Origin: Eubacteriales bacterium
GTDB taxonomy: Bacteria; Bacillota; Clostridia; Oscillospirales; SIG627
Assembly (NCBI GenBank): GCA_045660745.1
Contig: JAZREJ010000041.1
Coordinates: 12,656 to 76,655 of the forward strand
Direction of reading: 5' to 3'
DNA: 64,000 nt
The position numbers were made by a program, and so were the translations under genes. The notes beneath the pieces are model-generated. The model was not told where the DNA came from, made no database searches, and was given only the letters and a program-made list of their open reading frames with translations. Shown here in pieces: positions 3,730 to 61,345 of the stretch (positions are counted from its first letter, which is position 1; every line of letters begins with the position of its first letter).

Positions 3730-4794
3730 ATGAAAAAAACAGGAGTTGTTTTACTCGTTTTTCTAATGCTTTGCACCTCGTTCCTTTTTTCTTGTTCCGA
3801 GGAAAAGAGCGAGAGCGCGATAAGATACGGCGAGGCAGAATACGACGAAAGACTTTTTATGTATGAGCTTTCAAGATACAAGACCGAGTTCCTTGCATCT
3901 CTCGGAATTCAGGGAAGTGATGCTCCCGAACTGTGGCAGACAGCAATGGGAACGGGAAGCGACGGCACCGTAATAACCATCGGCGATTATATTTATCAGG
4001 AATGCCTTCTCAATATGCGCATCACCCTCTTTTTTGCGGATTACGCAAAGAAGCACGGCGGTGAAATAACCTCTGCGCAGAAGAAAGAGCTTGATGCGTA
4101 TATGGACAATATTGTTGCGACCCTCGGATCTAAATCCGCAGTGAACAGTTATCTTGAGGAGTTCGGTATTGATTACGATTTGTACAGAAAGCATCTTGAT
4201 ATCAACCAGCTCAGCGTGAACGGAATCTCACTTGCTTATGCAAAGGGCGGTGACAGGTATATCACGGTGGACGAGGAGCGCGATTACTACAGAGAAAACT
4301 TTATTACCGTCAAGCATATCACCATAGGAACCGAAATTGCAGGCTCAGACCAAGAGGGTAACTATATTTATTATACCGATGAGGAAAAAGCCGAAAAACA
4401 GGCGAAAATTGACGATATCCGCGCAAGAATCGCGGCGGGTGAGGATTTTGATGTTCTCTGTGCCGAGAGTGAAGACAACTTCCTTGAAACATATCCCAAG
4501 GGGTACACAATAACAGAAGGTGCTCTTACGGGTGAAAAGGAAGGCTACGGCAAGGCAGCTCTTCTTCTTGACATGGGAGAAGTAACAGAGTGGAAAATGG
4601 AAGGCTTTGGATATTACTTCATCAAGCGAGTTGAGCTTAACGAGGACGATTTTGAATACTGCAGAGAGTATATCTATCCGATACTTGAGGAGCAGGATAA
4701 AACCGTTGCGGTAGTTGAAAACGCCGAAAACTTTGTGGAAAACGTTGATATCATTTCAAGTTATACTCTTGCAAACGTACCTGTAATGAAATAA
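3730..4794 (+). CDS. PrsA/SurA-like foldase lipoprotein with degenerate parvulin-type PPIase domain
   Basis: ORF track 3721..4794; start moved to ATG 3730 (MKKTGVVLL). Lipobox LFSC. Parvulin-like stretch VKHITIG..GEDFDVLCAESED..GYYFIKR. Confidence 0.7.
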   Translation: MKKTGVVLLVFLMLCTSFLFSCSEEKSESAIRYGEAEYDERLFMYELSRYKTEFLASLGIQGSDAPELWQTAMGTGSDGTVITIGDYIYQECLLNMRITLFFADYAKKHGGEITSAQKKELDAYMDNIVATLGSKSAVNSYLEEFGIDYDLYRKHLDINQLSVNGISLAYAKGGDRYITVDEERDYYRENFITVKHITIGTEIAGSDQEGNYIYYTDEEKAEKQAKIDDIRARIAAGEDFDVLCAESEDNFLETYPKGYTITEGALTGEKEGYGKAALLLDMGEVTEWKMEGFGYYFIKRVELNEDDFEYCREYIYPILEEQDKTVAVVENAENFVENVDIISSYTLANVPVMK

Positions 4795-4805
4795 GGAGAA
4801 AAATC

Positions 4806-5870
4806 ATGAAAAGAATACTTTTAATTGTTTTAGCGTTTCTTTTGTGCGTATCAGTCTTTTCCTGTTCTTCCGAAAAGAGCGAAGAACGGAATGAGATCTC
4901 ACTTCCCAAAGGAACTGTTCTCGGCTACGGAGACACTTACGTCACAGAAAGCTATTTCCTTTCCGAGGTAGCTATGTATAAGTCGAGTTATCTTTACTCG
5001 GTGATGGGTGTTGACGGAGATGTCGAGGGGCTTTGGGACGAGGCATCAAACGAGGAAGGTGTTACCAAGGGCGAGGCTATTTTGAATCTTGCGCTTGAGG
5101 AATGCTTTGCAATGGCATGGGTTGTTGACTGGGGTAAGAAAAACGGAATCGAGCTTACCGACGAGGACAGAGCGCTTATCGACGAGGATATTGCAACCGT
5201 GAGCGAGCAGTACGGCGGTTATGAAAATTTCATTGCAGCAATTAAGGAAAGTGGTCTTACCGAGGAAGAGTTTTATGCAAATTCCGAGTTTTCCCTTCTT
5301 TATGAGAAGGCTATAACGGTACTTACCGCAGAGGGCGGAGATTATGAGATATCCTCTGATGAGATAAACAAATATTTTGCGGAAAACTTTGTTGCCGTAA
5401 AGCATATTTATGTCAACAACGTTGCCGAGATGAACGAGGAAGGTACCTACGTTCAGATATCCTCCGAAACTTATGATGAGAAGATGCAGAAGGCAGACAG
5501 TATGGAGAATGCTCTTAAGAACGGGGAGGATTTTGACCTTCTTTATGCAATGTCGGATGACGGTATGCAGGCGGCATATCCCAACGGAATGGTGATTACA
5601 ACAGGGGATGTTGCATCTGTTGATTATGAGAAAGCGTGCTTCTCTCTTAAGGTTGACGAATGGAAGAGAGTGGATATTCCGATGTACGGAATATACTTCA
5701 TTAAGCGCGTTGCAGTGCCCGAGGATCTTGGTGCACAGAGACTTGCAGAGGTTCCCTACTACATGAGAGCCGATGTTCAGCATAAGATATGGGAAGACCA
5801 TCAGGATGAGTTTATCGTAAACTTTGACCTCGTTGATAAGATCGACGTTGCAGCTATTCCAGTAGGATAA
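4806..5870 (+). CDS. PrsA/SurA-like foldase lipoprotein, paralog of the preceding gene
   Basis: Signal peptide plus lipobox VFSC. Same architecture: VKHIYV..GEDFDLLYAMSDD..GIYFIKR. RBS GGAGAA upstream. Confidence 0.7.
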   Translation: MKRILLIVLAFLLCVSVFSCSSEKSEERNEISLPKGTVLGYGDTYVTESYFLSEVAMYKSSYLYSVMGVDGDVEGLWDEASNEEGVTKGEAILNLALEECFAMAWVVDWGKKNGIELTDEDRALIDEDIATVSEQYGGYENFIAAIKESGLTEEEFYANSEFSLLYEKAITVLTAEGGDYEISSDEINKYFAENFVAVKHIYVNNVAEMNEEGTYVQISSETYDEKMQKADSMENALKNGEDFDLLYAMSDDGMQAAYPNGMVITTGDVASVDYEKACFSLKVDEWKRVDIPMYGIYFIKRVAVPEDLGAQRLAEVPYYMRADVQHKIWEDHQDEFIVNFDLVDKIDVAAIPVG

Positions 5871-5877
5871 TAACAAA

Positions 5878-5908
5878 GCCCTTACATGAAAAAAGTGTAA
5901 GGGCTTTT
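5878..5908 (+). terminator. rho-independent terminator after the PrsA-like pair
   Basis: Stem GCCCTTACA (5878-5886) / TGTAAGGGC (5896-5904) followed by TTTT. Confidence 0.8.
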
Positions 5909-5912
5909 CGTA

Positions 5913-5926
5913 TGTAACGCTTTACG
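5913..5926. promoter_or_regulatory. candidate LacI-family operator half-palindrome TGTAACGCTTTACG
   Basis: Imperfect dyad centred on CG/GC, resembling TGTAAnCGnTTACA-type LacI/CcpA sites. A second dyad TACGAA-N5-TTCGTA lies at 6010-6026. Confidence 0.3.
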
Positions 5927-6079
5927 CAACAAATAGATTTTGAATATTTTAAAAAGGTGGGACTGTAGCTCTTTACGGAATGGGCGAGAAATAGGGTGAA
6001 TTTACTTTTTACGAAAAAAATTCGTATAAAGAAATATTGCTTTTCGACTTTTTGTGTGGTAATATGTGGGGGAGGTGAA

Positions 6080-7060
6080 ATGATGCTAACCTATAAAAAG
6101 ATAGCTTCTCTTGCGGGTGTTTCCGAATCTACTGTTTCAAAGGCTTTGACGGGTAGTGCGGAAATTGCACAGTCTACCGTAGAGAAGGTGAGAAGGATTG
6201 CTTGTGAGCAAGGATATTATAAGGCAAAAAGGGAGCTTAAGAGAAATAATTCTTCTGTATTTGCTCCGCATATTGCCATAATTTGCCCTGAGATAATAAG
6301 TGTTTTTTACTCCTCGGTTGCGGAAGCTCTTATAGAGAGAATAACCTCTTCAGGAGGACGGGCAACCATTGCTATCAGCCGTTTCGGTGCTTCCGAGGCT
6401 GAACATATCGCAGACAGTATTGCGCATGACCCCGACTTTGACGGAATAATTTCAATGCAGAGCCTTTCTAATTATTCGTCTTTGAATATTCCTGCTGTGT
6501 TTTTGACGGGAGCTTATTGCGGTGAGGCGGATTCTGTAGGCTGTAATATGTCTGCCAGCATAGAGTCGCTTGTTTGTCACCTTGCCGAAACAGGACACAA
6601 AAGAATAGGCTTTATAGGTGAAATGTATACTGTATATAAGGAAAGTATGTTCAGACAGTGTATGAAAAAACATGGATTTGATATTGTCGAGGAGCTTATT
6701 ATCAGAAGTGATAAAAGGTTTTTCAATGTCGGCAAAGAAGCTTTCGCTTCTTATTCCGAAAGAGGTATTTTCCCTGACGGTGTTATTTGTGCTTATGATG
6801 AAATTGCCTTTGGGTTTATGAGTGAGGCACAGAAAAAAGGAATGACAATCCCTGATGATATATCGGTGACAGGTATTAACGATACACCCTTTGCCGAGTT
6901 TTCAACCCCTCCGCTTACAACTACCTCCTCACGCCGTGAGGATATCGCCCATGCCGCATATGACATATTGATTTCAAGAATACTCGGCTCAAGATTGCCG
7001 CCTAAAAATATATGCTACGAAGGCTTTGTTGTGAAAAGACAGAGCGTTAAGAAAAGATAG
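6080..7060 (+). CDS. LacI family transcriptional regulator
   Basis: ORF track 5996..7060; start moved to ATG 6080 behind GGAGGTG. N-terminal HTH MLTYKKIASLAGVSESTVSKALTG, followed by a periplasmic-binding-protein-like sugar-binding fold. Confidence 0.9.
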   Translation: MMLTYKKIASLAGVSESTVSKALTGSAEIAQSTVEKVRRIACEQGYYKAKRELKRNNSSVFAPHIAIICPEIISVFYSSVAEALIERITSSGGRATIAISRFGASEAEHIADSIAHDPDFDGIISMQSLSNYSSLNIPAVFLTGAYCGEADSVGCNMSASIESLVCHLAETGHKRIGFIGEMYTVYKESMFRQCMKKHGFDIVEELIIRSDKRFFNVGKEAFASYSERGIFPDGVICAYDEIAFGFMSEAQKKGMTIPDDISVTGINDTPFAEFSTPPLTTTSSRREDIAHAAYDILISRILGSRLPPKNICYEGFVVKRQSVKKR

Positions 7061-7100
7061 ATTCAGCATAATAAAATAAAAAACTTAAAGGAGAATTAAA

Positions 7101-9032
7101 ATGTATACACACAGACTTGCTGTAAGATGTCTTAATGACCCTGCATGGGTTGATGAATTTTTAAAATACGTTGACGCAAATCCGAATTCATGTCAGGAGG
7201 TTTGGCTTTGCTCGTCATACGCTTTTCCTTCCATTGAAACGCACCGTCAATTTGCTAGAGGAATGAAGCCTGCTCTTGAGAAATTCAAGGCAAGAGGTAT
7301 CCGTGTTGCACTTCAGATATCAAATACCATCGGAGGTCATAACAATACTCTTTCCTCCGACTGTACGGGTCTTATCCGTGACGATTGGCACGCGCCTTAT
7401 TTTGTTTATCCAAACGGAGAGGAATGCCCCGGTAGATTCTGTGCACGCTCTAAAGCCTTTGCAGACTATATAGACGGCGAATTTGAAGCGTATCTTTCCG
7501 AGCTTGACGTGTGCGGTGTATGGATAGACGATGATTTCCGTATGGGTAATCATACTCAGTCCTGTTGGTGTGACTCTTGCATCGAAGAGTTTTCACGCCG
7601 TCAGGGAAGAGAGTATACAAGAGAAGAGCTTGTGCGCCTTGTAAACGATGATTTTGATACAAGAGATGCGTGGATAAAGTTCACAAGCGACAGAGCGCAC
7701 GATGCAGCAAAGCTTTTTGCGGACGTTGTACATAAATATAACCCCACAGCGTATATGGCTCTTCAGCACGGCGCTAACGGATATATGCAGGGCTGCGGCC
7801 ATACGTCTGTTTTTGAAGGCTTTATGGAAGGCTCGGGAGTTGCTCCCAAGTCACGTCCGGGAGGCGGCTCATACGAGGACTTCGACCCCAACACCTTTAT
7901 CAGAAAATATCGTTGGATGTCACATCAGACACGATATCTTCCCGAGTGCGTTGAGGATATCCGTCCCGAAATCGAAAACCTTCCCGACGTTGCCTATGGA
8001 AAAACAATGGCAGGTCTTGCCTTTGAGACAGCCTTCTATTTTGCGGGCGGTGCCACCAGCATGAGCTATGCCACCATGATGCGTCGCAACGAGCCTCTTT
8101 CATGGCTCACGATTCAGCTTCGCGATATGTCAGAAAACTTTGAGTGGTTTTCAAGGCTTTCAAAAATCAATAAGGAAACGAATCCCGACGGCGTTGAGGT
8201 GTACGTTGCCGAAAAGCCTTGGAATTATAAAACCGAAAAGGATTTTGCTTGGGAGCAGATATACTTTGATACGGGCGTTGAGCTTATCCGTGACGGATTT
8301 GGCGTAAACCTCAATAAGATAGGAAAGGTATTCTTCCTCAATAAGCACTATGCCGAGCTTCTCACAGACGACGAAATAAAGATGCTTCTTTCAAAGCCCG
8401 TTGTCTGCGACGGCGAGAGTGCTACCATTCTTACTGAGAGGGGATACGGAGATATGCTTGGTGTTAAGGCTGAGAATATCAAGACAGGCAAGCTTACCGA
8501 AAGACTTGCAGACGGCTATCCTTGGAGCTTTAACTTCTTTGTTCCGAGAGGAGCGCTTCTCACCCTTTCCGACAGAGCAAGAGAAATAACAAAGTATGAA
8601 GTGACCGCAACGGGAGAATATTTCGGCACAGCTTCAGCTTACACCGAGACAACCCTCGGCGGACGCTGGGCGGTTATCGGATACTGTCTCTTCCATCAGA
8701 TTACAAGCTTCGCAAAGAGATGTGCTATCGTTGACGCTATTGAGTGGGCGGGCGGCAAGCTTTCTGCAAAGTTAAATACCCCCGACAGAATGATAGTATT
8801 CCCGAGAGCGGATAAGAGCACAGGCAGACTGCGTGCGGTAAGCCTTGTGAATACAACGGTCGGAAAGGTGTCTGGTGCAATACTCGAGCTTGACGGAGAA
8901 TATACAAAGTGCGAGTGGCGCGCGCTTCACGTTCCGAGCACACCCCTGGAAACAAGAAGCGAGAACGGATCAACGTTTGTAACCATTCCCGATTTTGATG
9001 CTTGGAGCGTGGGAACACTGTTCCTTGACTAA
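7101..9032 (+). CDS. GH42-like TIM-barrel protein of unknown specificity
   Basis: 643 aa, RBS AAGGAG. Segment GVWIDDDFRMGNHTQSCWCDSCIEEF parallels the GH42 WNE...CxCxxC region of the two clear GH42 genes in this window. No further family assignment possible by eye. Confidence 0.5.
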   Translation: MYTHRLAVRCLNDPAWVDEFLKYVDANPNSCQEVWLCSSYAFPSIETHRQFARGMKPALEKFKARGIRVALQISNTIGGHNNTLSSDCTGLIRDDWHAPYFVYPNGEECPGRFCARSKAFADYIDGEFEAYLSELDVCGVWIDDDFRMGNHTQSCWCDSCIEEFSRRQGREYTREELVRLVNDDFDTRDAWIKFTSDRAHDAAKLFADVVHKYNPTAYMALQHGANGYMQGCGHTSVFEGFMEGSGVAPKSRPGGGSYEDFDPNTFIRKYRWMSHQTRYLPECVEDIRPEIENLPDVAYGKTMAGLAFETAFYFAGGATSMSYATMMRRNEPLSWLTIQLRDMSENFEWFSRLSKINKETNPDGVEVYVAEKPWNYKTEKDFAWEQIYFDTGVELIRDGFGVNLNKIGKVFFLNKHYAELLTDDEIKMLLSKPVVCDGESATILTERGYGDMLGVKAENIKTGKLTERLADGYPWSFNFFVPRGALLTLSDRAREITKYEVTATGEYFGTASAYTETTLGGRWAVIGYCLFHQITSFAKRCAIVDAIEWAGGKLSAKLNTPDRMIVFPRADKSTGRLRAVSLVNTTVGKVSGAILELDGEYTKCEWRALHVPSTPLETRSENGSTFVTIPDFDAWSVGTLFLD

Positions 9033-35314: not shown

Positions 35315-36562
35315 TTAACGAAGTGCACTTGTGCTTATGTAATAATAAACAAGTGACGAGGTCGTAACAGCATCTCCTCCAAGCTCTTTATTCGGAGTAT
35401 ATTCGGCGGCTCCAAAAATCAAATAATCATCTGTAACGTGACCGATATAATGCTTTCCGTCATTTATTGTATCGACATAAACAAGAATATCGTTCTTCAC
35501 ATCGTAATACATTGGGCAATCATTGTTCCATCCATCCCACACTATTAATGAATCATTACAATCAACAAGGTCTATTGTCAAAGAACTTTTAATTATCGGA
35601 TAAGATTTATTGTTTTTATACAGTATAAGCCCGTCATCAATTTTCGCAACCAGCGTGTTGTTATATCCGCTCAAATATAAATAGTTTTGTCCCAAAAATA
35701 TATCCGATTGCTCAGGCATTGTATTTTTTAAAACATACTCTTTTTTTGATTCATCATACCCCAGATATGAAACACCATTGTAATATATTGGCTCGGTAGC
35801 CCTTTTTTCGGCAACCAATGTAATTTCGTCCGCTTCTATATTATACTTATATAAATTAACGTTGGCTTTATTGTTGGTTACAGATACCGTGTCCTGAAAA
35901 TAAACTTCATTATCATTAATAACAATAGCACCAAAATTCCAGGAATACATATATCCGTTTTCGTCCTTTGTATAAGTGTAAAAGAGCTTGTTTACGCCTG
36001 TGTTCATGTCAAGACAGTTCAATGAAGCCTTAAGCCAATTGGCATTATCATCCTCCTTCCAAATAACATATCTGTCATTAACTACATAAATAGAGATTTC
36101 TTTATCTGTATTGAAGTGATATACGGTTTCCTCGGTGCAAGTGTCTAGGTTATATCTAAGAATGCTTTTATTCCCGTTTTGCTCTACTAAAAAATACAAA
36201 TAATTTTTATATTCTGCATGCAAAGCAAATGTATCATAAGATTCAATATTATTAAAAACCACCTTGTTTAGAGTTAAGCTCGGATAAACATTTGAAAACG
36301 CTTCGCATTTTTTATATAAATTTAATGTATACCTTTGAATATAATCTTTGCCTCCGACGTATTCCTTATATGCTATCTCTTTTTCTACAATTTCATAATG
36401 TTTGTTTTTATTAAAAACATCTGTGTCGATTTTCAAAACATTAGATATACCTTCTTCTTGTTCGTCTGCGATATCCGAAAAAGGCTCAGAGTTTCCTTTG
36501 CATGAAGAAAAAGTAAGAAAAAAACACAGCAATAGTACCGCAAATAATTTTTTATTAAACAT
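35315..36562 (-). CDS. hypothetical lipoprotein, beta-propeller-like (DUF5050/TolB-like pattern)
   Basis: 415 aa; lipobox FSSC. Repeated hydrophobic/aromatic beta-strand pattern (YNLDT..VYHF, YVIW, LYKYNIE, etc.). Confidence 0.6.
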   Translation of the reverse strand: MFNKKLFAVLLLCFFLTFSSCKGNSEPFSDIADEQEEGISNVLKIDTDVFNKNKHYEIVEKEIAYKEYVGGKDYIQRYTLNLYKKCEAFSNVYPSLTLNKVVFNNIESYDTFALHAEYKNYLYFLVEQNGNKSILRYNLDTCTEETVYHFNTDKEISIYVVNDRYVIWKEDDNANWLKASLNCLDMNTGVNKLFYTYTKDENGYMYSWNFGAIVINDNEVYFQDTVSVTNNKANVNLYKYNIEADEITLVAEKRATEPIYYNGVSYLGYDESKKEYVLKNTMPEQSDIFLGQNYLYLSGYNNTLVAKIDDGLILYKNNKSYPIIKSSLTIDLVDCNDSLIVWDGWNNDCPMYYDVKNDILVYVDTINDGKHYIGHVTDDYLIFGAAEYTPNKELGGDAVTTSSLVYYYISTSALR

Positions 36563-36594
36563 AATTTCTCCTTAAAATCTCATGACCTTTCTTA

Positions 36595-36870
36595 TCAAAA
36601 CAAATTTGTTATATTTGTTTTGATACTATACACTGTATTTTGCTCAAAGTTTTCTCCTACATATACTCTTGCAACTGTTTTGACTCGATATGTACCATTT
36701 GATAAACCCGATTTTGCATTGGTTAAAGAGCTTTTATATCGGATATTCAAATCTGAAAGGATCGAAGATGTATACATATATCTTGGAGTTACAGAGCCTG
36801 CTAACACAGTGATAAAAAAGCAACTTAACAAAAGCAATACCATAATTACCGACATCATCTTTTTAAGCAT
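36595..36870 (-). CDS. small secreted hypothetical protein
   Basis: ORF track 36595..36960; start moved to ATG 36870 behind AAAGGAGGGGG. Signal peptide MLKKMMSVIMVLLLLSCFFITVLAG. Confidence 0.5.
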   Translation of the reverse strand: MLKKMMSVIMVLLLLSCFFITVLAGSVTPRYMYTSSILSDLNIRYKSSLTNAKSGLSNGTYRVKTVARVYVGENFEQNTVYSIKTNITNLF

Positions 36871-53999: not shown

Positions 54000-56060
54000 A
54001 TGGAAAATATTTTTACAGATATATTCCCTTACGGTACTCAGTACCACAGAGCCCCTACTCCACTTCCCGAGGAATGGGAGGAAGACTTTCAAAACATAAA
54101 AAACAACGGATATACACACGTTCAGTTTCGTCCGCAGTGGAGATGGCATGAGAGGGTAAGAGGACAGTATACCTGGGATGACCTCGACCGTCTTTTCGAT
54201 CTTGCAGACGAATATGATATAAAGGTGGTTTTGAAGCCGATGCTTGAAAATGCCCCCGACTATGTCTATCATGAGCTTGGAGGTACTCGAATAGGCTTTA
54301 GAGGACACCCTATAGGTCCTATTTCACACGCAGCTTTTTATGTTGGCGGTTGGCTTCCTTGTTTTGATAATCCCGAGGTTGCAAAGGCTGCGGGAGATTT
54401 CGTCTTCGAGCTTGTATCAAGATATAAAAACCGTAAGAGTCTTTGGTTCTACAATGCATGGAATGAGCCGAGAAGCCGCCCCCTCGGACAGTGCACTTGT
54501 CCTCATTCAGTAAAGAAATACCGAGAATTTTTGAAAAACCGATTCGGTACTGTTGAAAACCTCAACCGTATTTACGGAAAGGCTTGGGAAAGCTTTGAGA
54601 CGATCACACCTCCTCTGTCAAGCTCTGATTACGTTGAACTGTTTTTGTGGAGAAGATGGGCGGCACAAGCGGTAGCAGAGCATATTTCCATTGCATCCGA
54701 AGCAATAAGACGTGCTGACCCGAATGCCAAGGTAATGTGTCACGTCGGTGCATCGTCTGTACGTCAGGACCCGGCTTGCGACACCTCCGACGATTTCCAA
54801 AACAAAGAAACCGTTGATTGGTACGGCACCTCCATGTGGATTCCAATGAACCCTGAGAATCCGCTTGAATATGACAGCACTCTTATTCAATCGTCCTGGC
54901 TCCACAGGGTAGATAAAAACTGGATGTGCCACGAATTCTACCCGAATCAGGGTAACTGGTGGCCCGAGGCAAAGCCCGAATATATCGAGCAAGCAGCTCT
55001 TATGGCGATATCCGTCGGATGCCGCGGACTTACCTTCTGGCAGTACAGAAGTGAGCGCTTTGGAGAAGAGTCAAACGGATGGGGAATGAGAAATATCAAC
55101 GGAAGTGCAACTCCGAGAAGCGAGCGCTTTGACCGACTCGGAAGAATACTTTCGACCGAGAAGGATCTTGCAAAAACTGATTACGTCGCACCTCCCGTCG
55201 CGCTCTACTTTGATATGGAAAACGATCTTCAGATGAGATTGCAAACTATAAACTCACCCACGGGTGAGGAGCTTGGACGCGTGCAACCCTCATACTCTCA
55301 CGCAACAAAGACCTCTGTAAACGGTGCTCACGCAACCCTCAGACGTCTTGGATATACGGCGGATTTCGTCGTAAAGGGGGATGACCTATCTCGCTATAAG
55401 GCGGTCGTTGTGTCCTCACTTGAAATGACAACAAACGTGGAGCGTGAAGCGTTTGAAAACTACGTTAAAAACGGTGGTGTTCTCTACATAGAATATCCCT
55501 TCGCTTGCCGTGATGAGAGAACTTGGGTATCTCCCAATCGTCCGAATTCGGGCTTTGAAGCACTCACCGGATGCCTTGAAGCGCACAGAGTTGAGTTCTC
55601 AAAGAGAATGACAAACAAGATGATATTCGAGGACGGCAGAATTGAAGAGACTGCGGGATGGCACGTAACTCTTGAGCCTATTGCAGACGACGTAAAGATT
55701 CTTGCACGCTGGGAGGAAGGTGGCGTTGCCGCGATCGAGCGTAAGGTAGGAAATGGAAAGGTCATTGTTTCTGGTGGAAACTTTTCAATATGGTCACACG
55801 ATCACTCGACAGAGGCTATTCCCTCACTCTTCGCAAAATCACTTGAGGATGCGGGTATCCGTGTCGACACCTCTCCTCTTTGGGTAATCGAGCGTGAATC
55901 GGATGAATATCTCTTCCGATTTGTGTTCAACACAGGAGACGAAAGTGTCGTGTGTGACAAGCTTGGTGAGATAGCATTCTCAGCAATTGAAATCACCGAA
56001 GGAAACGGAAAGATCACACTTCCTCCTCAAACGAGCGTAGTGTTTAAGATCAAAAAATGA
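54000..56060 (+). CDS. GH42 family beta-galactosidase-like glycoside hydrolase (tandem paralog)
   Basis: 686 aa, collinear with the preceding gene along its whole length (same YGTQYHRAPTPLPEEWE, FYNAWNEPRSRP and WQYRSERFG blocks). Confidence 0.88.
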   Translation: MENIFTDIFPYGTQYHRAPTPLPEEWEEDFQNIKNNGYTHVQFRPQWRWHERVRGQYTWDDLDRLFDLADEYDIKVVLKPMLENAPDYVYHELGGTRIGFRGHPIGPISHAAFYVGGWLPCFDNPEVAKAAGDFVFELVSRYKNRKSLWFYNAWNEPRSRPLGQCTCPHSVKKYREFLKNRFGTVENLNRIYGKAWESFETITPPLSSSDYVELFLWRRWAAQAVAEHISIASEAIRRADPNAKVMCHVGASSVRQDPACDTSDDFQNKETVDWYGTSMWIPMNPENPLEYDSTLIQSSWLHRVDKNWMCHEFYPNQGNWWPEAKPEYIEQAALMAISVGCRGLTFWQYRSERFGEESNGWGMRNINGSATPRSERFDRLGRILSTEKDLAKTDYVAPPVALYFDMENDLQMRLQTINSPTGEELGRVQPSYSHATKTSVNGAHATLRRLGYTADFVVKGDDLSRYKAVVVSSLEMTTNVEREAFENYVKNGGVLYIEYPFACRDERTWVSPNRPNSGFEALTGCLEAHRVEFSKRMTNKMIFEDGRIEETAGWHVTLEPIADDVKILARWEEGGVAAIERKVGNGKVIVSGGNFSIWSHDHSTEAIPSLFAKSLEDAGIRVDTSPLWVIERESDEYLFRFVFNTGDESVVCDKLGEIAFSAIEITEGNGKITLPPQTSVVFKIKK

Positions 56061-56161
56061 AAAAGTCGCCTTCGTAAAGTTCGCCTGCACTCACTAATCT
56101 CAGGGTAGACTTTTGCGTTACACGTAAATTGCGATGCAATTTCCTTAGTAATAAAAATACA

Positions 56162-56203
56162 AACCCCGAAACGCACTTGTTTTGAGTGCTTTTCGGGGTT
56201 TTG
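56162..56203. terminator. hairpin terminator between convergent GH42 and glpP genes
   Basis: AACCCCGAAA..GCACT / AGTGC..TTTCGGGGTT followed by TTTG on plus; T-rich on minus as well. Confidence 0.7.
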
Positions 56204-56215
56204 TTAAGATGTACA

Positions 56216-56249
56216 GAAAAAACACACGACATTTGTGTCGTGTGTTTTG
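56216..56249 (-). terminator. rho-independent terminator of glpP
   Basis: ACACACGACA (56222-56231) / TGTCGTGTGT (56236-56245). Plus A6 at 56216-56221 gives a U-run on the minus strand. Confidence 0.75.
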
Positions 56250-56251
56250 CT

Positions 56252-56782
56252 TTATCTCCAAAGCTCTCTTTTACCTGTTGAAACAGCAAACGCACCTGAA
56301 ACGTGCGCAAGAGCTACTTCCTCCTCAGTCTCAATAAGACCGCCTGCAATAATGGGAATAGTCACTCTGTCGCGGAAGAAGGAGATTGCCTTCGTTGCAA
56401 TTCCGGGCATAAGCTCAATCATATCAGGAAGATTCTTCTGCATGGTATCGACGGCAGTAGCAATTGAGTGGGAATCAACGATAAATACTCTTTGAACAGT
56501 TTTCATACCGAGATCCCTTGCCGACTTTATGATACTTGCGCGGGTACTTATTATACCATCAACACCGAGTGTCTTAAGATATAAACATCCTGACGTATCC
56601 TTGCCTATACCATCGGCAAAATCCATATGTACAAAAAGTCTCTTTCCCGCAGTGTGTACCTTTTCAAGAACACTCTGAAGCTCCATTATATCGGTCTTTA
56701 AAAGAAATATATCCGAAACGCTTGACAAAAGCGCTTCTTCTAAATCCCGCTGGTTTCTTACCGCTGCAATTATCTTTCCCAT
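56252..56782 (-). CDS. glpP: GlpP-family RNA-binding antiterminator
   Basis: ORF track 56252..56851; start moved to ATG 56782 behind GGAGGG. Strong resemblance to Bacillus subtilis GlpP as recalled from memory (DGIISTR, IPIIAGGLIETEEEV, STGKRELW). Confidence 0.85.
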   Translation of the reverse strand: MGKIIAAVRNQRDLEEALLSSVSDIFLLKTDIMELQSVLEKVHTAGKRLFVHMDFADGIGKDTSGCLYLKTLGVDGIISTRASIIKSARDLGMKTVQRVFIVDSHSIATAVDTMQKNLPDMIELMPGIATKAISFFRDRVTIPIIAGGLIETEEEVALAHVSGAFAVSTGKRELWR

Positions 56783-56794
56783 AAAACCCTCCAA

Positions 56795-56847
56795 AGAAAA
56801 AATAAGCGCACTACTGCTGCAGCATTTTGCCACAGCAGTATGTGCAC
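56795..56847 (-). terminator. leader terminator upstream of glpP (leader 2)
   Basis: Minus strand GTGCACATACTGCTG (56847-56833) / CAGCAGTAGTGCGC (56819-56806), loop containing GGCAAAATG, then TTATTTTTT. Confidence 0.7.
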
Positions 56848-56878
56848 TCAAAATCTCAGCAATTACTACAGTAACTTG

Positions 56879-56907
56879 ATTATAGCACCGAGTGAGATTT
56901 TTGTCAA
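56879..56907 (-). promoter_or_regulatory. consensus sigma-A promoter for glpP
   Basis: Minus strand TTGACA (56907-56902), 17 nt, TATAAT (56884-56879). Begins 8 nt after the malic enzyme stop. Confidence 0.75.
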
Positions 56908-56914
56908 GAATAAT

Positions 56915-58087
56915 TTATATTCTTGCAACGCCCGTCTCACGTGCGGTCTTGATAACCGCTTCTGCAACGACCTCAGCAACTCTCTTATCAAGAGCTGAAG
57001 CGATAATGTTTTCCTCAGAAAGCTCTTCGTCGCTGATAAGGGATGCGAGAGCAAAAGAGGTTGCAACCTTCATTTCCTCGTTGATGCAGGTAGCTCTGCA
57101 ATCAAGCGCACCGCGGAAGATACCGGGGAAAGCAAGTACGTTGTTTATCTGGTTGGGAAAGTCGGAGCGTCCTGTGCCGACAACTCTTGCACCTGCCTTC
57201 TTTGCTATGTCCGGCATGATTTCGGGAGTGGGGTTTGCCATGGGGAACATGATAGCATCATTCGCCATAGACTTTACCATATCCTCGTTTACGAGGTTTG
57301 GAGCGGAAACACCGATAAATACGTCAGCGCCAACGAGAGCATCAGCAAGAGTTCCTTTCTTGTGCTCAAGGTTTGTAACCTTAGAGATTTCTTCCTGTGC
57401 AACGTTGTTATTTTCGTCACCCTCGCAGATGATGCCGAAACGGTCGCAGAAGGTAAGATTTTTAACGCCGATGTTGAGGAGGTGACGTCCGATAGCGATA
57501 CCTGCACTTCCAGCGCCGTTGATAACTACTTTAACCTCACCGATCTCCTTCTTAACAACCTTAAGCGCGTTGATAAGAGCTGCCGCAACAACGATAGCTG
57601 TTCCGTGCTGGTCATCGTGGAAAATCGGGATATCACAGATTTCTTTAAGCTTTCTCTCAATCTCAAAGGAACGGGGAGCGGAAATATCCTCGAGGTTGAT
57701 ACCGCCGAAGCTTCCGGAGAGAAGATAAATCGTTCTTACAATTTCGTCAACGTCCTTGGACTTGATGCAAAGGGGGAATGCATCAACGTCTGCAAATTCC
57801 TTGAAGAGTGCACATTTACCCTCCATAACGGGCATACCTGCCTCAGGTCCGATATCACCGAGACCGAGGATTGCAGTACCATCGGTTATAACCGCAACGA
57901 GATTTGAACGACGGGTAAGGTCATAGGACTTGTTTATATCCTTGTTGATTTCAAGGCAAGGCTCTGCAACACCGGGGGTATATGCAAGAGAGAGATCCTG
58001 ACGGTCATTGATGGGGGCACGGGAGATAACTTCTATCTTACCCTTCCATTCGTAATGCTTTTTGAGTGATTCTTGTCTGATATCCAT
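56915..58087 (-). CDS. NAD(P)-dependent malic enzyme
   Basis: 390 aa. Segments AYTPGVAEPC, IPIFHDDQHGTAIV, INGAGSAGIAI. Confidence 0.92.
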   Translation of the reverse strand: MDIRQESLKKHYEWKGKIEVISRAPINDRQDLSLAYTPGVAEPCLEINKDINKSYDLTRRSNLVAVITDGTAILGLGDIGPEAGMPVMEGKCALFKEFADVDAFPLCIKSKDVDEIVRTIYLLSGSFGGINLEDISAPRSFEIERKLKEICDIPIFHDDQHGTAIVVAAALINALKVVKKEIGEVKVVINGAGSAGIAIGRHLLNIGVKNLTFCDRFGIICEGDENNNVAQEEISKVTNLEHKKGTLADALVGADVFIGVSAPNLVNEDMVKSMANDAIMFPMANPTPEIMPDIAKKAGARVVGTGRSDFPNQINNVLAFPGIFRGALDCRATCINEEMKVATSFALASLISDEELSEENIIASALDKRVAEVVAEAVIKTARETGVARI

Positions 58088-58090
58088 TTT

Positions 58091-59200
58091 TTAGTCCTCC
58101 CAAGGGAATTTATATTGTGTAAGACCAAGTGTGTTACGAACCTCTTCCATTTCCTTCTGAACAGATTCGTTGATCGGCACGCCCGACTCGCGTGCAAGGC
58201 GAACTTCATGTTCCTTCTCACCCGCAGTGTAGATACGCTCTGCATCGGGAGCTTTTCTGGAAGCACGAACTTCACGAAGAATATCGCCCGCCTTTTTACG
58301 GCAAACATCCTCACCGAGGAAGTGATCGGTATCGATTGCGATAAAGAAGTGCCCGAGGCAGTAGGGAACCTTGTTTCCATTTTCGTCCTTACCTGTAAGA
58401 GCCTTACCATAGCTGCCGTCCTGAAGAACTGCAGACATAAGCTCTACGAACATAGCAAAGCCGTAGCCCTTGTATCCGCATCCTTCTTCACCGGGACCGC
58501 CGAGAGTACAAAGTGCAGCCTCTCCGCGTGCCATAGCCTTAAGAGCATCCGCTGAAGTTCCCTCATAGGCTTCGCCCTCAAGATTTACCAGCGCGCCCTT
58601 GGGAGCGTCCTTGCCGATACGCGCATAATACTCGAGCTTGCCATTTTGGTAGGTGGAGCTTGCGGCATCAAAGTTAAAATCAAACGCCTCGTCGGTGGGG
58701 ACGCCGAGAGTTAATGGGTTGGTACCGAACATACCCTCAACACCGAAGGTGGGGGCAACTGTTGGACGTGCGTTTGTACCTGTCATACCTACACAACCCG
58801 CTTTAGCTGCCATGGAAGTGTAATAGCCGGCGATACCATAGTGGCAGGAGTTACGAACAACTACCATACCCATACCATATTCTTTAGCTTTTGCAATAGC
58901 CATCGACATCGCCTTGTGACCGATGACCTGACCCATACCATGATGTCCGTCAACAACGGCAGTGGTGGGGGTTTCCTTGATGATTTCAAAGTTTGTAATT
59001 GGGTTCTGGATACCGTCTCTGATTCTGTCGAGATAAACTGGCTTGAAGCGGTTAACACCGTGAGATTCGATACCTCTCTTATCGGATTCGAGAAGAACGT
59101 CAGCACATATCTCTGCATCCTCTCTGGGAATTCCGTAACCTACGAAAGCGTCGATAACGAAATTCGTGATTGTTTTCCAATCGACAATGTTGCTTTTCAT
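58091..59200 (-). CDS. Ldh2 (malate/L-lactate dehydrogenase type 2) family oxidoreductase
   Basis: 369 aa. Segments ESHGVNRF, DGHHGMGQV, GYKGYGFAMFVELMS; RBS GGAGG. Confidence 0.82.
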   Translation of the reverse strand: MKSNIVDWKTITNFVIDAFVGYGIPREDAEICADVLLESDKRGIESHGVNRFKPVYLDRIRDGIQNPITNFEIIKETPTTAVVDGHHGMGQVIGHKAMSMAIAKAKEYGMGMVVVRNSCHYGIAGYYTSMAAKAGCVGMTGTNARPTVAPTFGVEGMFGTNPLTLGVPTDEAFDFNFDAASSTYQNGKLEYYARIGKDAPKGALVNLEGEAYEGTSADALKAMARGEAALCTLGGPGEEGCGYKGYGFAMFVELMSAVLQDGSYGKALTGKDENGNKVPYCLGHFFIAIDTDHFLGEDVCRKKAGDILREVRASRKAPDAERIYTAGEKEHEVRLARESGVPINESVQKEMEEVRNTLGLTQYKFPWED

Positions 59201-59226
59201 CTTTTTTCCTCCAAAATATTAATTCC

Positions 59227-59275
59227 AACAAAAAAGCGCACTTATCCCATCGTATTTGCCGATAAATAAGTGCAC
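59227..59275 (-). terminator. leader terminator upstream of the Ldh2-family gene (leader 1)
   Basis: Minus strand GTGCACTTAT (59275-59266) / ATAAGTGCGC (59245-59236), inner ATCG/CGAT stem, loop containing GGCAAATA, then TTTTTTGTT. Confidence 0.7.
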
Positions 59276-59297
59276 TCTAAAATCTCAATGCGTAGAT

Positions 59298-59326
59298 ATT
59301 ATAATAGATTTTTTGAATATTGTCAA
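59298..59326 (-). promoter_or_regulatory. consensus sigma-A promoter for the Ldh2/malic enzyme operon
   Basis: Minus strand TTGACA (59326-59321), 17 nt, TATAAT (59303-59298). Confidence 0.75.
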
Positions 59327-59756
59327 GCATAATTCTGCAAACAGCATGATTATTCTTCCACACTCACTATTTTACGGATTCACACCCCTTGCCAAACAGA
59401 TCAAGTGTAAGCGACGTACCGCTAAACTTTTTTCACAATCTAACTCCTTTTAGTCTATAAAATAGTATAAAAACCGCCAGAAATCTGCTTTTCAGAGCTT
59501 TGCTTGTTGCAAAATCTATTGTCTCTCGTAACAGCAAGCCTCTCACAGATACAGCATTGAGCTTTTATCAGTGGAAACATTTTACGTTTATTTTATCACA
59601 ATTAATAATTTTTTTAATCCTATATCGGTAAATATCTTGTTCCTCATAATATTACGTGCTCATTATTCACCCGATTTTACAAGCGGACATCATATCGGAG
59701 CAAGTCAAACAGACACGGGATATTCCGATCTCTTGTTTTTTTGAAGAGAGCCTTTT

Positions 59757-60953
59757 CTACCGTTTTGATCTTAGTTTTACGTTCTTATAGAGAAAAAACA
59801 GTCCGAAGGTCAGAGTTATCGGAAATACTGTGGCAGTAAGTAAGCCTATTTTCAGGTCTCCGCCCGCCATTTCCGAGAATTTGCCCACCATAGCAGGGCT
59901 TACGGTTGCCCCCAAGTCTCCAGCCAAAGCCAAAAAGGCAAACATAGCAGTTCCGCCTCGCGGACATTTTTGAGAGGAAATACTGATCGTTCCGGGCCAC
60001 ATGATTCCGACGGCAAGACCGCAAAGAGCGCAACCTACCAAGCCTAATATCGGCAAAGGAGACAGCGACGCAATCAAATAACATGCTGTACAGGAAGCTC
60101 CGCATAAAAGCATGGTTTTTGTAAGGTTGAGATTTTGGCTCATTTTTCCGTATGACATACGGGCAACACCCATGAATGCCGCAAATAAACAAGCGCCCGC
60201 CAGATCTCCTACAGTTTTGGATACTCCGAGTGCCGATTCGGTAAATGCAGATGTCCACTGGGACATGGTGGCTTCCGAAGCACCGGCACATATCATCAGA
60301 ATTATCATCAGCCAAAAGACAGGAACTCCGAATAACTGCTTTATACTCATGCTATTTCCGTCCTCAACCAGTCTTTCTATAGGACAGCGCATAAAATTAA
60401 ATGCGTTATACAGCGGAACCAAAGCCCAGATAAAGGTAAGTATTTTCCAGCTTTCTATACCGAATATTGTGAAAAATGCTGTTGACCCCAATATCACTCC
60501 TACCGCACCCCAGCAGTAAAATGAGTGCAACAGACTCATCATGCCGTCTTTGTTTTCAAAAGGACACGCCTCAACGATTGGACTTACAAGTACCTCGATA
60601 AGACCGCTGCCTATTGCGTAAAAAATTACGGCAATAAGCAGTCCGACAAACGGTGCTGACATTATATCCGGCAAAATCGCCATTAAAACAAGTCCCACCG
60701 ATGACAACAGCTGTGATGCAACCACACAGATCCGATAACCTATTCTGTCGGCATATTTTGTGGCTGCCAGATCCGTGAGTAATTGTGTAAAATAAAATAC
60801 CAAAGGAATAAGAGCTATTTTTTCAAGCGAAATTCCGTAGGTTCCTTTAAAGGTCAAGAACAATAGCGGCGAAAAGTTCGCCGATATTGATTGTGTTACA
60901 AATCCGAGATAACAGGCCACCAATGTTTTTTTGTAATTCTTTTGCTTTACCAT
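59757..60953 (-). CDS. MFS transporter
   Basis: 398 aa with about 12 TM segments. Confidence 0.85.
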   Translation of the reverse strand: MVKQKNYKKTLVACYLGFVTQSISANFSPLLFLTFKGTYGISLEKIALIPLVFYFTQLLTDLAATKYADRIGYRICVVASQLLSSVGLVLMAILPDIMSAPFVGLLIAVIFYAIGSGLIEVLVSPIVEACPFENKDGMMSLLHSFYCWGAVGVILGSTAFFTIFGIESWKILTFIWALVPLYNAFNFMRCPIERLVEDGNSMSIKQLFGVPVFWLMIILMICAGASEATMSQWTSAFTESALGVSKTVGDLAGACLFAAFMGVARMSYGKMSQNLNLTKTMLLCGASCTACYLIASLSPLPILGLVGCALCGLAVGIMWPGTISISSQKCPRGGTAMFAFLALAGDLGATVSPAMVGKFSEMAGGDLKIGLLTATVFPITLTFGLFFLYKNVKLRSKR

Positions 60954-61345
60954 AATTGCTCACTTCCTAAAAGCTGAATTCACAGTCCCTATGTTCTCAG
61001 AGTACATCCCAGAAGCCTTAAACCAATTTAAATTTTCCATCGTCAACAAAGTATTTACATCGTAGAGCTCCTTGGCAGCACAGCCTAAAACAGTTTATCA
61101 TATAGCAACCGAAAAATCAATATAAATAAGCTTTTTTAAGTATTAAAAATCCAAGATCCGCGCTTTCTCGCTACACTGATATTATATCCCACGTCAAATG
61201 TACGGCAAAACAATTTTTGATAAAAGCGCATCATATAGCTTTATAACGATTTTATAAATTATAAGAGCTGTATATTGAAAAAAACAGCATTCAATAAGAT
61301 AAAAGAACTCATCAAATTCTTACTTGTCGAACAGTTAAATAGAGA

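Follow-up and report, generated by a model that had tools for sequence, protein, structure and literature searches.

The window, as we call the whole 64-kb stretch of DNA analysed here, derives from an uncultured gut Clostridia lineage and contains a locus whose genes, from an MFS transporter to glpP, all lie on the minus strand. Between them are two leaders of like layout, one ahead of a gene for an Ldh_2-family oxidoreductase and a gene for a short-form malic enzyme, and the other directly ahead of glpP, which encodes a member of the glycerol-3-phosphate-responsive antiterminator family whose PDB relatives are 3kts and 1vkf. The best solved relatives of the Ldh_2 protein are the type-2 malate dehydrogenases 3i0p and 1v9n, and the protein is probably an enzyme of this type. 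Searches of the 64-kb window with GlpF, GlpK, GlpD and GlpA-like queries (tblastn) detected no glycerol genes. The features of the locus are as follows, in the order in which they are read on the minus strand.

59757-60953, minus strand: MFS transporter, preceding leader 1
59326..59201, minus strand: leader 1, ahead of the Ldh_2 and malic enzyme operon
59298..59326, minus strand: leader 1 promoter (TTGACA 59326-59321, 17-nt spacer, TATAAT 59303-59298)
59274..59286, minus strand: leader 1 GAGA box GAGAUUUUAGAGU, flanked by a 3-bp helix of GCA (59291-59289) and UGC (59274-59272)
59230..59278, minus strand: leader 1 terminator hairpin (59278-59233) and U-run (59235-59230)
58091..59200, minus strand: Ldh_2-family oxidoreductase (PF02615, E = 3e-111), first gene under leader 1
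56915..58087, minus strand: short-form malic enzyme (PF00390 + PF03949), second gene of the leader 1 operon, whose transcript runs into leader 2
56907..56783, minus strand: leader 2, directly upstream of glpP
56902..56907, minus strand: -35 hexamer TTGACA of leader 2, the glpP-proximal promoter, 8 nt past the malic-enzyme stop codon
56879..56884, minus strand: -10 hexamer TATAAT of leader 2, preceded by TG
56864..56869, minus strand: 5' strand GUAGUA of P1b, the predicted outer antiterminator helix (partner UACUGC, 56840-56835), from the minimum free energy (MFE) structure of the leader's 5' half and from duplex permutation tests
56859..56861, minus strand: 5' strand UGC of P1a, the predicted inner antiterminator helix (partner GCA, 56845-56843)
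56846..56857, minus strand: GAGA box GAGAUUUUGAGU, 12 nt, proposed GlpP recognition element, from invariant columns in leader alignments
56835..56845, minus strand: 3' strands of P1a (GCA) and P1b (UACUGC), also within the terminator 5' arm
56803..56850, minus strand: intrinsic-terminator hairpin of leader 2, 22 pairs with one bulged A and a 3-nt apical loop
56797..56805, minus strand: U-run UUAUUUUUU, following and overlapping the hairpin end
56788..56792, minus strand: ribosome-binding site GGAGG of glpP
56782-56780, minus strand: start codon ATG of glpP
56252..56782, minus strand: glpP, 176 aa (PF04309, E = 7.6e-58, full length)

The glpP-proximal promoter matches the consensus at all 12 hexamer positions, with a 17-nt spacer and a TG ahead of the -10, and lies on the minus strand exactly where the first-pass annotation had placed it (TTGACA at 56907-56902, TATAAT at 56884-56879). 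After the -10 come 20 nt, TGAGATTTTGAGTGCAC, the long hairpin, AGTGCGCTT, a T-run, GGAGG and ATG, placing the element in the 5' leader between promoter and regulated gene, as in glpD-type leaders, with a G+C-rich intrinsic terminator and its U-run. The leader 2 hairpin has a folding energy of -35.6 kcal/mol (z = -6.1 against shuffled sequence) and is missed by a simple terminator scan because of its bulged A; the second half of the box, GAGU, doubles as the bottom of the terminator stem. The hairpin of leader 1 reaches -22.9 kcal/mol (z = -5.6 against shuffled sequence), and the -10 of this leader is only 10 nt from its box. Neither leader promoter has a CcpA cre site nearby, the four matches in the window all lying elsewhere.

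Shared features of the two leaders

The view of the first-pass annotation that the two leaders are instances of a conserved RNA element rather than the outcome of a recent duplication is supported by the distribution of their similarity and by the existence of orthologues of both leaders in related genomes. Pairwise alignment and a repeat search found similarity between the leaders in the -35 region and the -10, in the box together with the stem base, and in the complementary 3' stem base, the remainder being dissimilar. Since only the promoter hexamers, box and stem base are common to both, in pieces of just 15–20 nt, we rejected a longer recent duplication. The promoter hexamers are also kept in orthologues of the window layout while the spacers diverge, the -10 of the leader 2 orthologues in two related loci (L001 and L002) reading TATAAT or TATACT.

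Most of the individual similarities listed earlier hold at closer inspection. The common 5' flank, TGAGATTTT[N]GAGTGCAC, matches leader 1 at 59287-59270 with no mismatches (chance expectation 0.01 per window) and is the GAGA-N4-GAG(A/U) box, situated in the loop of an antiterminator helix. The common helix base with its U-G wobble is likewise real, the wobble position being U-G in some orthologues and U-A in others, and AGTGCGCTT followed by a T-run has exactly two occurrences, at 56812-56804 and 59242-59234 (chance expectation 0.38; two occurrences were reached in 6 of 100 shuffles). The upper stems differ in sequence yet pair, as had been described, both hairpins folding strongly from unlike sequences. 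The GGCAAA motif is present in the apical loops of both leaders, as claimed, but is absent from the orthologous loops of L001, L002 and L206; it is therefore a chance resemblance, and we rejected it as a conserved feature.

Relatives of the leaders and their association with glpP

A search with an alignment of GlpP homologues yielded 80 GlpP-encoding loci in metagenome-assembled genomes of Clostridia, the majority of gut origin; all relatives examined in this study are metagenome-assembled genomes. A simple pattern scan of these loci revealed a recurring (A/U)GAGA-N3-G-GAG(A/U) followed by a hairpin and T-run on the glpP strand. The element exists in two sequence variants, a majority variant of the form GAUAC-A-GAGAUUUGGAGAC-GUAUC-AAAAC...GUUUUGGUGCGUCUUUUUU and that of the window (variant B), UGC-UGAGAUUUUGAGU-GCA, and the box columns are invariant in 45–59 aligned leaders (alignments A2 and A4).

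A covariance model built from 45 instances (R1) matched only the two leaders in the 64-kb window, with the next best match at 16.5 bits, and gave full-length matches in 58 of the 80 GlpP loci, which are from other species; about 15 of the matched loci were outside the seed. Every one of these matches lies upstream of glpP and on the glpP strand, a positive outcome of the covariance search with a glpP co-occurrence check that the first-pass annotation had named as a means of examining its proposal. Minus-strand matches of R1 were partial and covered the palindromic stem only. In unrelated metagenome DNA (~0.56 Mb) chosen solely for the presence of a 14-nt core, the model found nothing better than E = 0.3, and in a metagenome scan for this core (GAGATTT-N0-2-GAGTGCA) almost all of the matches listed were due to chance and none had a terminator context. 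A second model (R2) was built from 52 majority-variant leaders with the window, its clade and every variant B leader excluded, and ranked leader 2 first in the 64-kb window (24.0 bits, E ~0.003). Leader 1 scored 11.7 bits (E ~1) with R2, and is counted as a member because of its similarity to leader 2 and because of its own orthologues (L002 3482-3550, L206 2476-2545).

No Rfam family covers the element. The whole window had no matches at gathering thresholds, and a permissive scan of 56700-59450 returned chance-level matches only (e.g. sau-5949, rli61 and U12), all with E > 4 and scores no higher than 20 bits, compared with gathering thresholds of 40–56. A hairpin at 36592-36626 that resembles the majority-variant terminator stem (21.8 bits) has neither box nor U-run and was rejected as unrelated. 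This hairpin is situated between an ECF-sigma/DUF4367 unit and an unannotated gene.

At most loci the leader heads four genes, encoding a GlpA-like FAD oxidoreductase (DAO + Fer2_BFD), Pyr_redox_2, DUF1667 and GlpP, and this Clostridia operon is annotated by similarity as glycerol-3-phosphate dehydrogenase-like. These canonical operons share with the window locus a leader class detected by the same covariance model and a glpP that is the last gene of the controlled unit, and some of them (L003 and L209–L211) hold GlpPs that are ~70% identical to that of the window. The window clade differs from them in its Ldh_2 and malic enzyme genes and in a second promoter and leader before glpP, an arrangement (leader, Ldh_2, malic enzyme, promoter with leader, glpP) that is also found at the loci whose GlpPs are at least 77% identical to that of the window (L001, L002 and L206–L208). 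In this clade Ldh_2 and malic enzyme stand in place of the three oxidoreductase genes, with the extra promoter and leader inserted immediately ahead of glpP.

A second set of relatives was gathered by a search started from the Ldh_2 protein (L212–L216). The first of these (L212, 90% identity) encodes Ldh_2, malic enzyme, GlpP and two HAD phosphatases, and has a majority-variant leader (63.7 bits) ahead of these genes. Three others (L213–L215, 87–88% identity) have Ldh_2 and malic enzyme without glpP and lack a leader, and a lone Ldh_2 homologue (L216) has neither glpP nor leader. All Ldh_2–malic enzyme operons with a downstream glpP have the leader (the window, L001, L002, L206–208 and L212). 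The presence of the leader with glpP in L212 and the like, and its absence where glpP is lacking in L213–L216, indicate that the leader follows glpP and not the cargo. In at least two lineages, the predicted regulon consists of malate dehydrogenase and malic enzyme, having shifted away from glycerol-3-phosphate dehydrogenase genes.

Competing structures and comparison with known antitermination systems

The terminator is 94% paired across 59 leaders, with compensatory (both-sided) changes in 12 of its 13 pairs and slid controls at 43–55%. The bases just 5' of the box pair with those just 3' of it, which constitute the terminator 5' arm. In the majority variant this antiterminator helix, GAUAC/GUAUC, is paired in 245 of 245 cells (49 sequences) and has double-sided changes in four of five pairs (GAUGC/GCAUC, AAUGC/GCAUU, UAUAU/AUAUA and GACGC/GUGUC); none of 500 shuffles reached the observed values, and slid controls were 2–45% paired. 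Compensatory changes in homologues, on which the earlier proposal of a conserved RNA had been made to depend, are therefore plentiful, in the terminator as well as in the alternative antiterminator helix. The inner helix of the window variant is short (UGC/GCA or AUGC/GCAU), and P1a of leader 2 is homologous to the covarying GAUAC/GUAUC helix. In leader 1 the antiterminator comprises 3 bp only (GCA/UGC), making this feature weak there.

The leader 2 type has, in addition, an outer helix formed by the far 5' flank with the upper terminator arm; its pairs differ among genomes: GUAGUA/UACUGC in the window, AUAG/CUAU in L001, UAUAGC/GCUGUA in L002, GCAGU/ACUGC in L206, UGGCA/UGCCA in L209, AUGAC/GUCAU in L210 and L211, CGGU/ACCG in L030 and CAGU/ACUG in L023. 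Within the window variant, duplexes of a leader's 5' flank with its own terminator arm averaged -8.2 kcal/mol, compared with -5.8 kcal/mol for duplexes with the arms of other leaders, and none of 10,000 permutations was as good; for the outer helix alone, with the inner helix removed and near-duplicates dropped, the values were -6.7 and -4.5 kcal/mol (p ~8e-4). An alternative antiterminator pairing that excludes the terminator is accordingly present in the leader 2 class (p < 1e-4 and ~8e-4), and since the 3' strands of P1a and P1b also belong to the terminator 5' arm, the two folds of leader 2 are mutually exclusive. The 5' half of leader 2 has this antiterminator, with its 13-nt loop UGAGAUUUUGAGU, as its MFE structure (-8.5 kcal/mol; 65% of the ensemble), the stability of which does not differ significantly from that of shuffled sequences (z = -0.56); support for this fold is comparative rather than thermodynamic.

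GlpP is a classical protein antiterminator of Gram-positive bacteria, and the window GlpP belongs to the same regulator family (PF04309) as the protein acting on the glpD, glpFK and glpTQ leaders of Bacillus subtilis. In that organism the promoters of glpD, glpT and glpFK are activated by GlpP; all three are followed by a 5'UTR that contains a GlpP site as well as an inherent terminator, and deletion of glpP abolishes induction (PMC9604022). GlpP loaded with glycerol-3-phosphate has been described as binding the glpD antiterminator and stabilising glpD mRNA (PMC7430163). The literature searched contained no nucleotide-level map of the GlpP binding site. The published glpD 5'UTR, ...AACGGUCC UGAGAUGAGGAGA GACCACAGCACCAAAGUG...CACUUUGGCUGUUGUGGUCUCUUUUU (PMC9604022, Table S4), reads GGUC-C-UGAGAUGAGGAGA-GACC followed by the terminator, in which a 4-bp helix (GGUC/GACC) closes a box of the form GAGA-UGAG-GAGA and the terminator 5' base consists of the second GAGA and the 3' strand of the helix. 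The same design is seen in the Staphylococcus aureus leaders of glpF (UAGAA-UA-GAGACGGGAGA-U-UUCUA) and glpD (GAAUC-GAGAAACGAGA-GAUUU), the S. aureus leader sequence being taken from a record mislabelled as 'plasmid', and upstream of a GlpA-like operon in Vescimonas fastidiosa (UGCA-A-UGAGAAUUUGAGU-CA-UGCA).

The window leaders thus have in common with the B. subtilis glpD leader the order of promoter, box in a short-helix loop, terminator 5' base overlapping box and helix, and gene, as well as the box itself (GAGA-N3-5-GAG(A/U), overlapping the terminator 5' base); sharing the design of the classical GlpP target, they most likely descend from it. The gene for the cognate protein family is encoded in the same genome, directly downstream of leader 2. 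The differences from B. subtilis concern the host lineage, the second half-box (GAGU in the window in place of GAGA), the two-part antiterminator helix of leader 2, the predicted promoter and conditional terminator of glpP itself, and the cargo. B. subtilis glpP has been described as part of a yhxA-glpP transcript (PMC3997798), and no mention of a GlpP-type leader upstream of it was found in the literature searched. The window leaders precede type-2 malate dehydrogenase, malic enzyme and glpP in place of glycerol uptake or glycerol-3-phosphate dehydrogenase genes; control of glycerol and glycerol-3-phosphate utilisation genes describes the usual regulon and not the mechanism, so that this cargo does not exclude membership of the RNA class.

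Other protein-operated antitermination systems resemble the element in part. The BglG/SacY/LicT proteins follow the same logic, in which a protein stabilises a weak antiterminator hairpin overlapping the 5' arm of a stronger terminator, but the GlpP fold is unrelated to theirs and has no CAT or PRD domain. Their RNA target, RAT, is a ~29-nt imperfect palindrome with two bulges recognised in the stem, whereas the conserved bases of the window element are in the loop. No PRD-type protein was found among the genes scanned in the locus and no RAT-type family among the Rfam matches of the window, so the RAT palindrome and CAT-PRD protein that define the BglG/SacY module are both lacking here. TRAP and HutP, both oligomeric, recognise G/UAG or NAG triplets that are repeated at intervals. 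The element, too, seems to be recognised through a brief purine-rich word recurring at a set distance within single-stranded RNA (GAGA, 3–5 nt, GAG(A/U)), but it has two repeats rather than 6–11 and is associated with another protein family, and TRAP promotes termination where a GlpP-type switch prevents it. Targets of the PyrR, TRAP or HutP type, considered on account of the GAGA-rich box, were rejected, there being none among the Rfam matches, no genes for these regulators seen in the locus and a strict association with glpP. The repetition of the GAGA word suggests recognition by two equivalent GlpP subunits.

A proposed GlpP-dependent switch and its physiological context

Based on the above comparisons, leader 2 is very probably a conditional terminator dependent on GlpP, that is, a protein-operated antitermination switch, and leader 1 a second switch of the same kind; from the leaders and their relatives we infer GlpP binding, the identity of its effector, and actual termination and read-through. 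Transcription would start at a strong sigma-A-type promoter, and the first ~45 nt would fold as a weak antiterminator, which in leader 2 is predicted to consist of GUAGUA/UACUGC and UGC/GCA with a 13-nt loop displaying GAGA-UUUU-GAGU. By default the RNA would refold into the far stabler terminator, whose base is built from GAGUGCAC and the antiterminator 3' strands, and polymerase would stop at the U-run. Effector-loaded GlpP, with glycerol-3-phosphate the most likely effector, would bind the emerging GAGA box and hold the antiterminator, thereby withholding GAGUGCA(C), and in leader 2 also UACUGC, from the terminator. The bottom 7–9 bp of the terminator would be blocked, leaving an upper hairpin at least 7 nt from the U-run, too far for termination, and read-through would follow.

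Leader 1 would in this way gate the malate dehydrogenase–malic enzyme operon, and leader 2 would gate glpP both for transcripts from its own promoter and for those reading through leader 1, which are expected to reach it because no other terminator lies between the malic-enzyme gene and leader 2. As glpP would be served by two promoters, both GlpP-dependent, the arrangement predicts positive feedback through autoregulation, with a basal level of GlpP presumably supplied by leaky termination. We infer the effector and the physiological logic, since the regulated genes are not glycerol genes and the 64-kb window has no glycerol gene. In the window GlpP, the 37 residues that are invariant and the 20 that are near-invariant in a 28-homologue sample, GlpPs of canonical operons included, are all retained, with no clade-specific residue change detected, and glycerol-3-phosphate is for this reason the most likely effector here too. 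The malate shunt, by which electrons pass from NADH to NADPH, has been discussed for related Clostridia (PMC7282089), and redox balancing by this route could, speculatively, be what links glycerol-3-phosphate to malate dehydrogenase and malic enzyme.

Alternative readings of the leaders were weighed against this GlpP-dependent switch. The hairpins could be ordinary constitutive terminators or attenuators, that of leader 2 marking the end of the Ldh_2–malic enzyme operon, with their similarity due to common descent of the stems and no regulatory protein involved. The leader 2 hairpin does follow right after the malic-enzyme stop codon and would terminate upstream transcripts too, and stems alone give partial model matches elsewhere, such as at 36592-36626. 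A plain terminator is nevertheless hard to reconcile with a conserved consensus promoter between stop codon and hairpin or with the ~430 nt that separate leader 1 from the preceding gene. Nor does it account for a single-stranded box 5' of the stem that is invariant across dozens of species, for the flank 5' of this box, which a plain terminator does not need and which covaries with the terminator 5' arm, or for the occurrence of the element only where glpP is present. We consider this explanation very improbable. Still less credence can be given to a metabolite riboswitch, in which the RNA itself would sense glycerol-3-phosphate or a related small molecule and GlpP would play no part. The conservation of the 5' leader, the mutual exclusion of its terminator and antiterminator folds and the lack of a match to any Rfam family would fit such an RNA, but what is conserved amounts to a ~12-nt loop on a helix of 3–5 bp, too small and unstructured for a ligand pocket, and the element is strictly accompanied by a GlpP gene in its operon or locus; moreover, the homologous B. 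subtilis glpD leader requires GlpP, showing no induction in the glpP deletion strain (PMC9604022).

It is also conceivable, though improbable, that the leaders are GlpP-type switches answering another signal in this clade, for instance a C4-dicarboxylate or a redox-linked metabolite. Such an effector would match the malate dehydrogenase and malic enzyme cargo, which is outside the glycerol pathway and has no glycerol genes nearby, and the arrangement is found again in a second lineage, there with the other leader variant (the L212 locus). Against a change of effector are the ~70% identity of the window GlpP to GlpPs of canonical GlpA-like/Pyr_redox_2/DUF1667 operons and the full retention of the invariant and near-invariant family residues without a detectable clade-specific change.

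For a GlpP-dependent switch at this locus, the kind of signal is the expected one, a known GlpP leader terminator, and it is the wiring that is unusual, with non-glycerol cargo and a promoter and leader belonging to glpP itself. The switch accounts for two strong hairpins placed after promoters, which would otherwise appear paradoxical in an annotation of the locus. Modestly new are a clear consensus and structure model for the GlpP RNA target, which Rfam lacks, the separate promoter and leader dedicated to glpP, and the replacement of glycerol-3-phosphate dehydrogenase by malate dehydrogenase and malic enzyme in the regulon. The GlpP regulon was expressly left out of consideration in one comparative-genomics study (PMC3750489). 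The two window leaders and ~60 relatives provide a compact recognition model, a tandem GAGA box in a short-helix loop that competes with the terminator base, and the covariance model can be used to annotate GlpP regulons in Clostridia. A bolder possibility, which we regard as rather unlikely and raise tentatively, is that GlpP antitermination in one clade of gut Clostridia has left glycerol catabolism to become a switch dedicated to an operon for malate dehydrogenase and malic enzyme (the 'malate shunt'), and also to control its own gene through a second promoter and conditional terminator in a positive-feedback loop, either with a changed effector or with glycerol-3-phosphate serving as a signal of redox or carbon status. 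If true, this would represent a new physiological role for PF04309 antiterminators.

Promoters and terminators of the two leaders

The promoters of the two GlpP leaders, leader 1 ahead of the operon for Ldh_2 (a probable type-2 malate dehydrogenase) and malic enzyme and leader 2 upstream of glpP, have in common an extended -35 context, AATTAT-N-CTTGACAA, which agrees at 17 of 20 nt (window positions 59315-59334 and 56896-56915, respectively). CTTGACAAA is present in related genomes too, and the shared context probably reflects an extended -35 typical of the lineage, not a site bound by a regulator. Consensus catabolite-responsive elements, WTGNAANCGNTNNCW, have four exact matches in the window (at 12613, 18530, 33292 and 39908) versus 0.64 expected, a count reached by none of 100 shuffles; none of the four lies near the GlpP leaders, and CcpA may bind them to control sugar-utilisation genes.

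At the 3' end of glpP lies one further hairpin:

56219-56248, 13-bp hairpin AAAACACACGACA-TTTG-TGTCGTGTGTTTT, between the convergent genes glpP (end 56252) and GH42 beta-galactosidase (end 56060)

This hairpin has A-runs and T-runs on either side and is probably a bidirectional terminator. The hairpins of leaders 1 and 2 were both absent from the list returned by a simple terminator scan of window positions 56000-61200, because a bulge breaks each stem. Scans for ungapped stems can overlook conditional terminators of the GlpP-leader kind.

Leader-like elements at other positions

A perfect palindromic, A/U-rich hairpin was observed elsewhere in the window:

36592-36626, GTATCAAAACAAAT...ATTTGTTTTGATAC

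In sequence, the two arms almost coincide with the terminator-stem consensus of leaders of the majority variant, the commoner of the two GlpP-leader sequence variants (21.8 bits with model R2, the covariance model built from 52 such leaders). The hairpin carries neither an upstream GAGA box nor a U-run, and TGAGATTTTAAGGAGA, 14 nt downstream on the minus strand, overlaps the ribosome-binding site of a 415-aa gene (35315-36562). Surrounding genes encode an ECF-type sigma factor, a DUF4367 protein and proteins without a Pfam match, and the hairpin is probably unrelated to GlpP leaders.

A separate observation concerns the metagenome contig Ga0139314_100459 (L153), where units of ~55 nt, each containing CATTGATGGAGATTTGGAGTGCATAGGATTTTTTGTT, stand in tandem at ~3440-3600 on the minus strand. 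In these units a T-run directly follows the box-like sequence with no hairpin between, and their model score is weak (18.4 bits).

GlpP leaders with non-canonical cargo and conservation of Ldh_2

A second lineage, represented by L212, carries Ldh_2, malic enzyme, GlpP (195 aa) and two HAD-family phosphatases as one unit (4001-8590), preceded by a majority-variant leader at 3894-3967 (63.7 bits). The window's clade is therefore not alone in linking GlpP to malate dehydrogenase/malic enzyme. In Clostridium butyricum, too, glpP is followed by HAD phosphatases. In two other loci an additional GlpP-type leader (L018 962-1027; L029 960-1026) precedes a gene for a calcineurin-like metallophosphoesterase, and this unit's leader is immediately upstream of that of the GlpA-like operon, the canonical glpP operon of Clostridia. 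These loci are a further instance of two leaders per locus and of non-canonical cargo.

A search for Ldh_2 homologues revealed that, among gut Clostridia, Ldh_2 greatly exceeds the neighbouring GlpP in both conservation and breadth of occurrence. Over 100 cluster representatives share 83% identity or more with the window's Ldh_2; the closest relatives of its GlpP share 85%, 84% and 82% identity, after which values drop quickly to <60%. The pattern fits Ldh_2 being a core metabolic enzyme over which GlpP control was gained in some lineages only.
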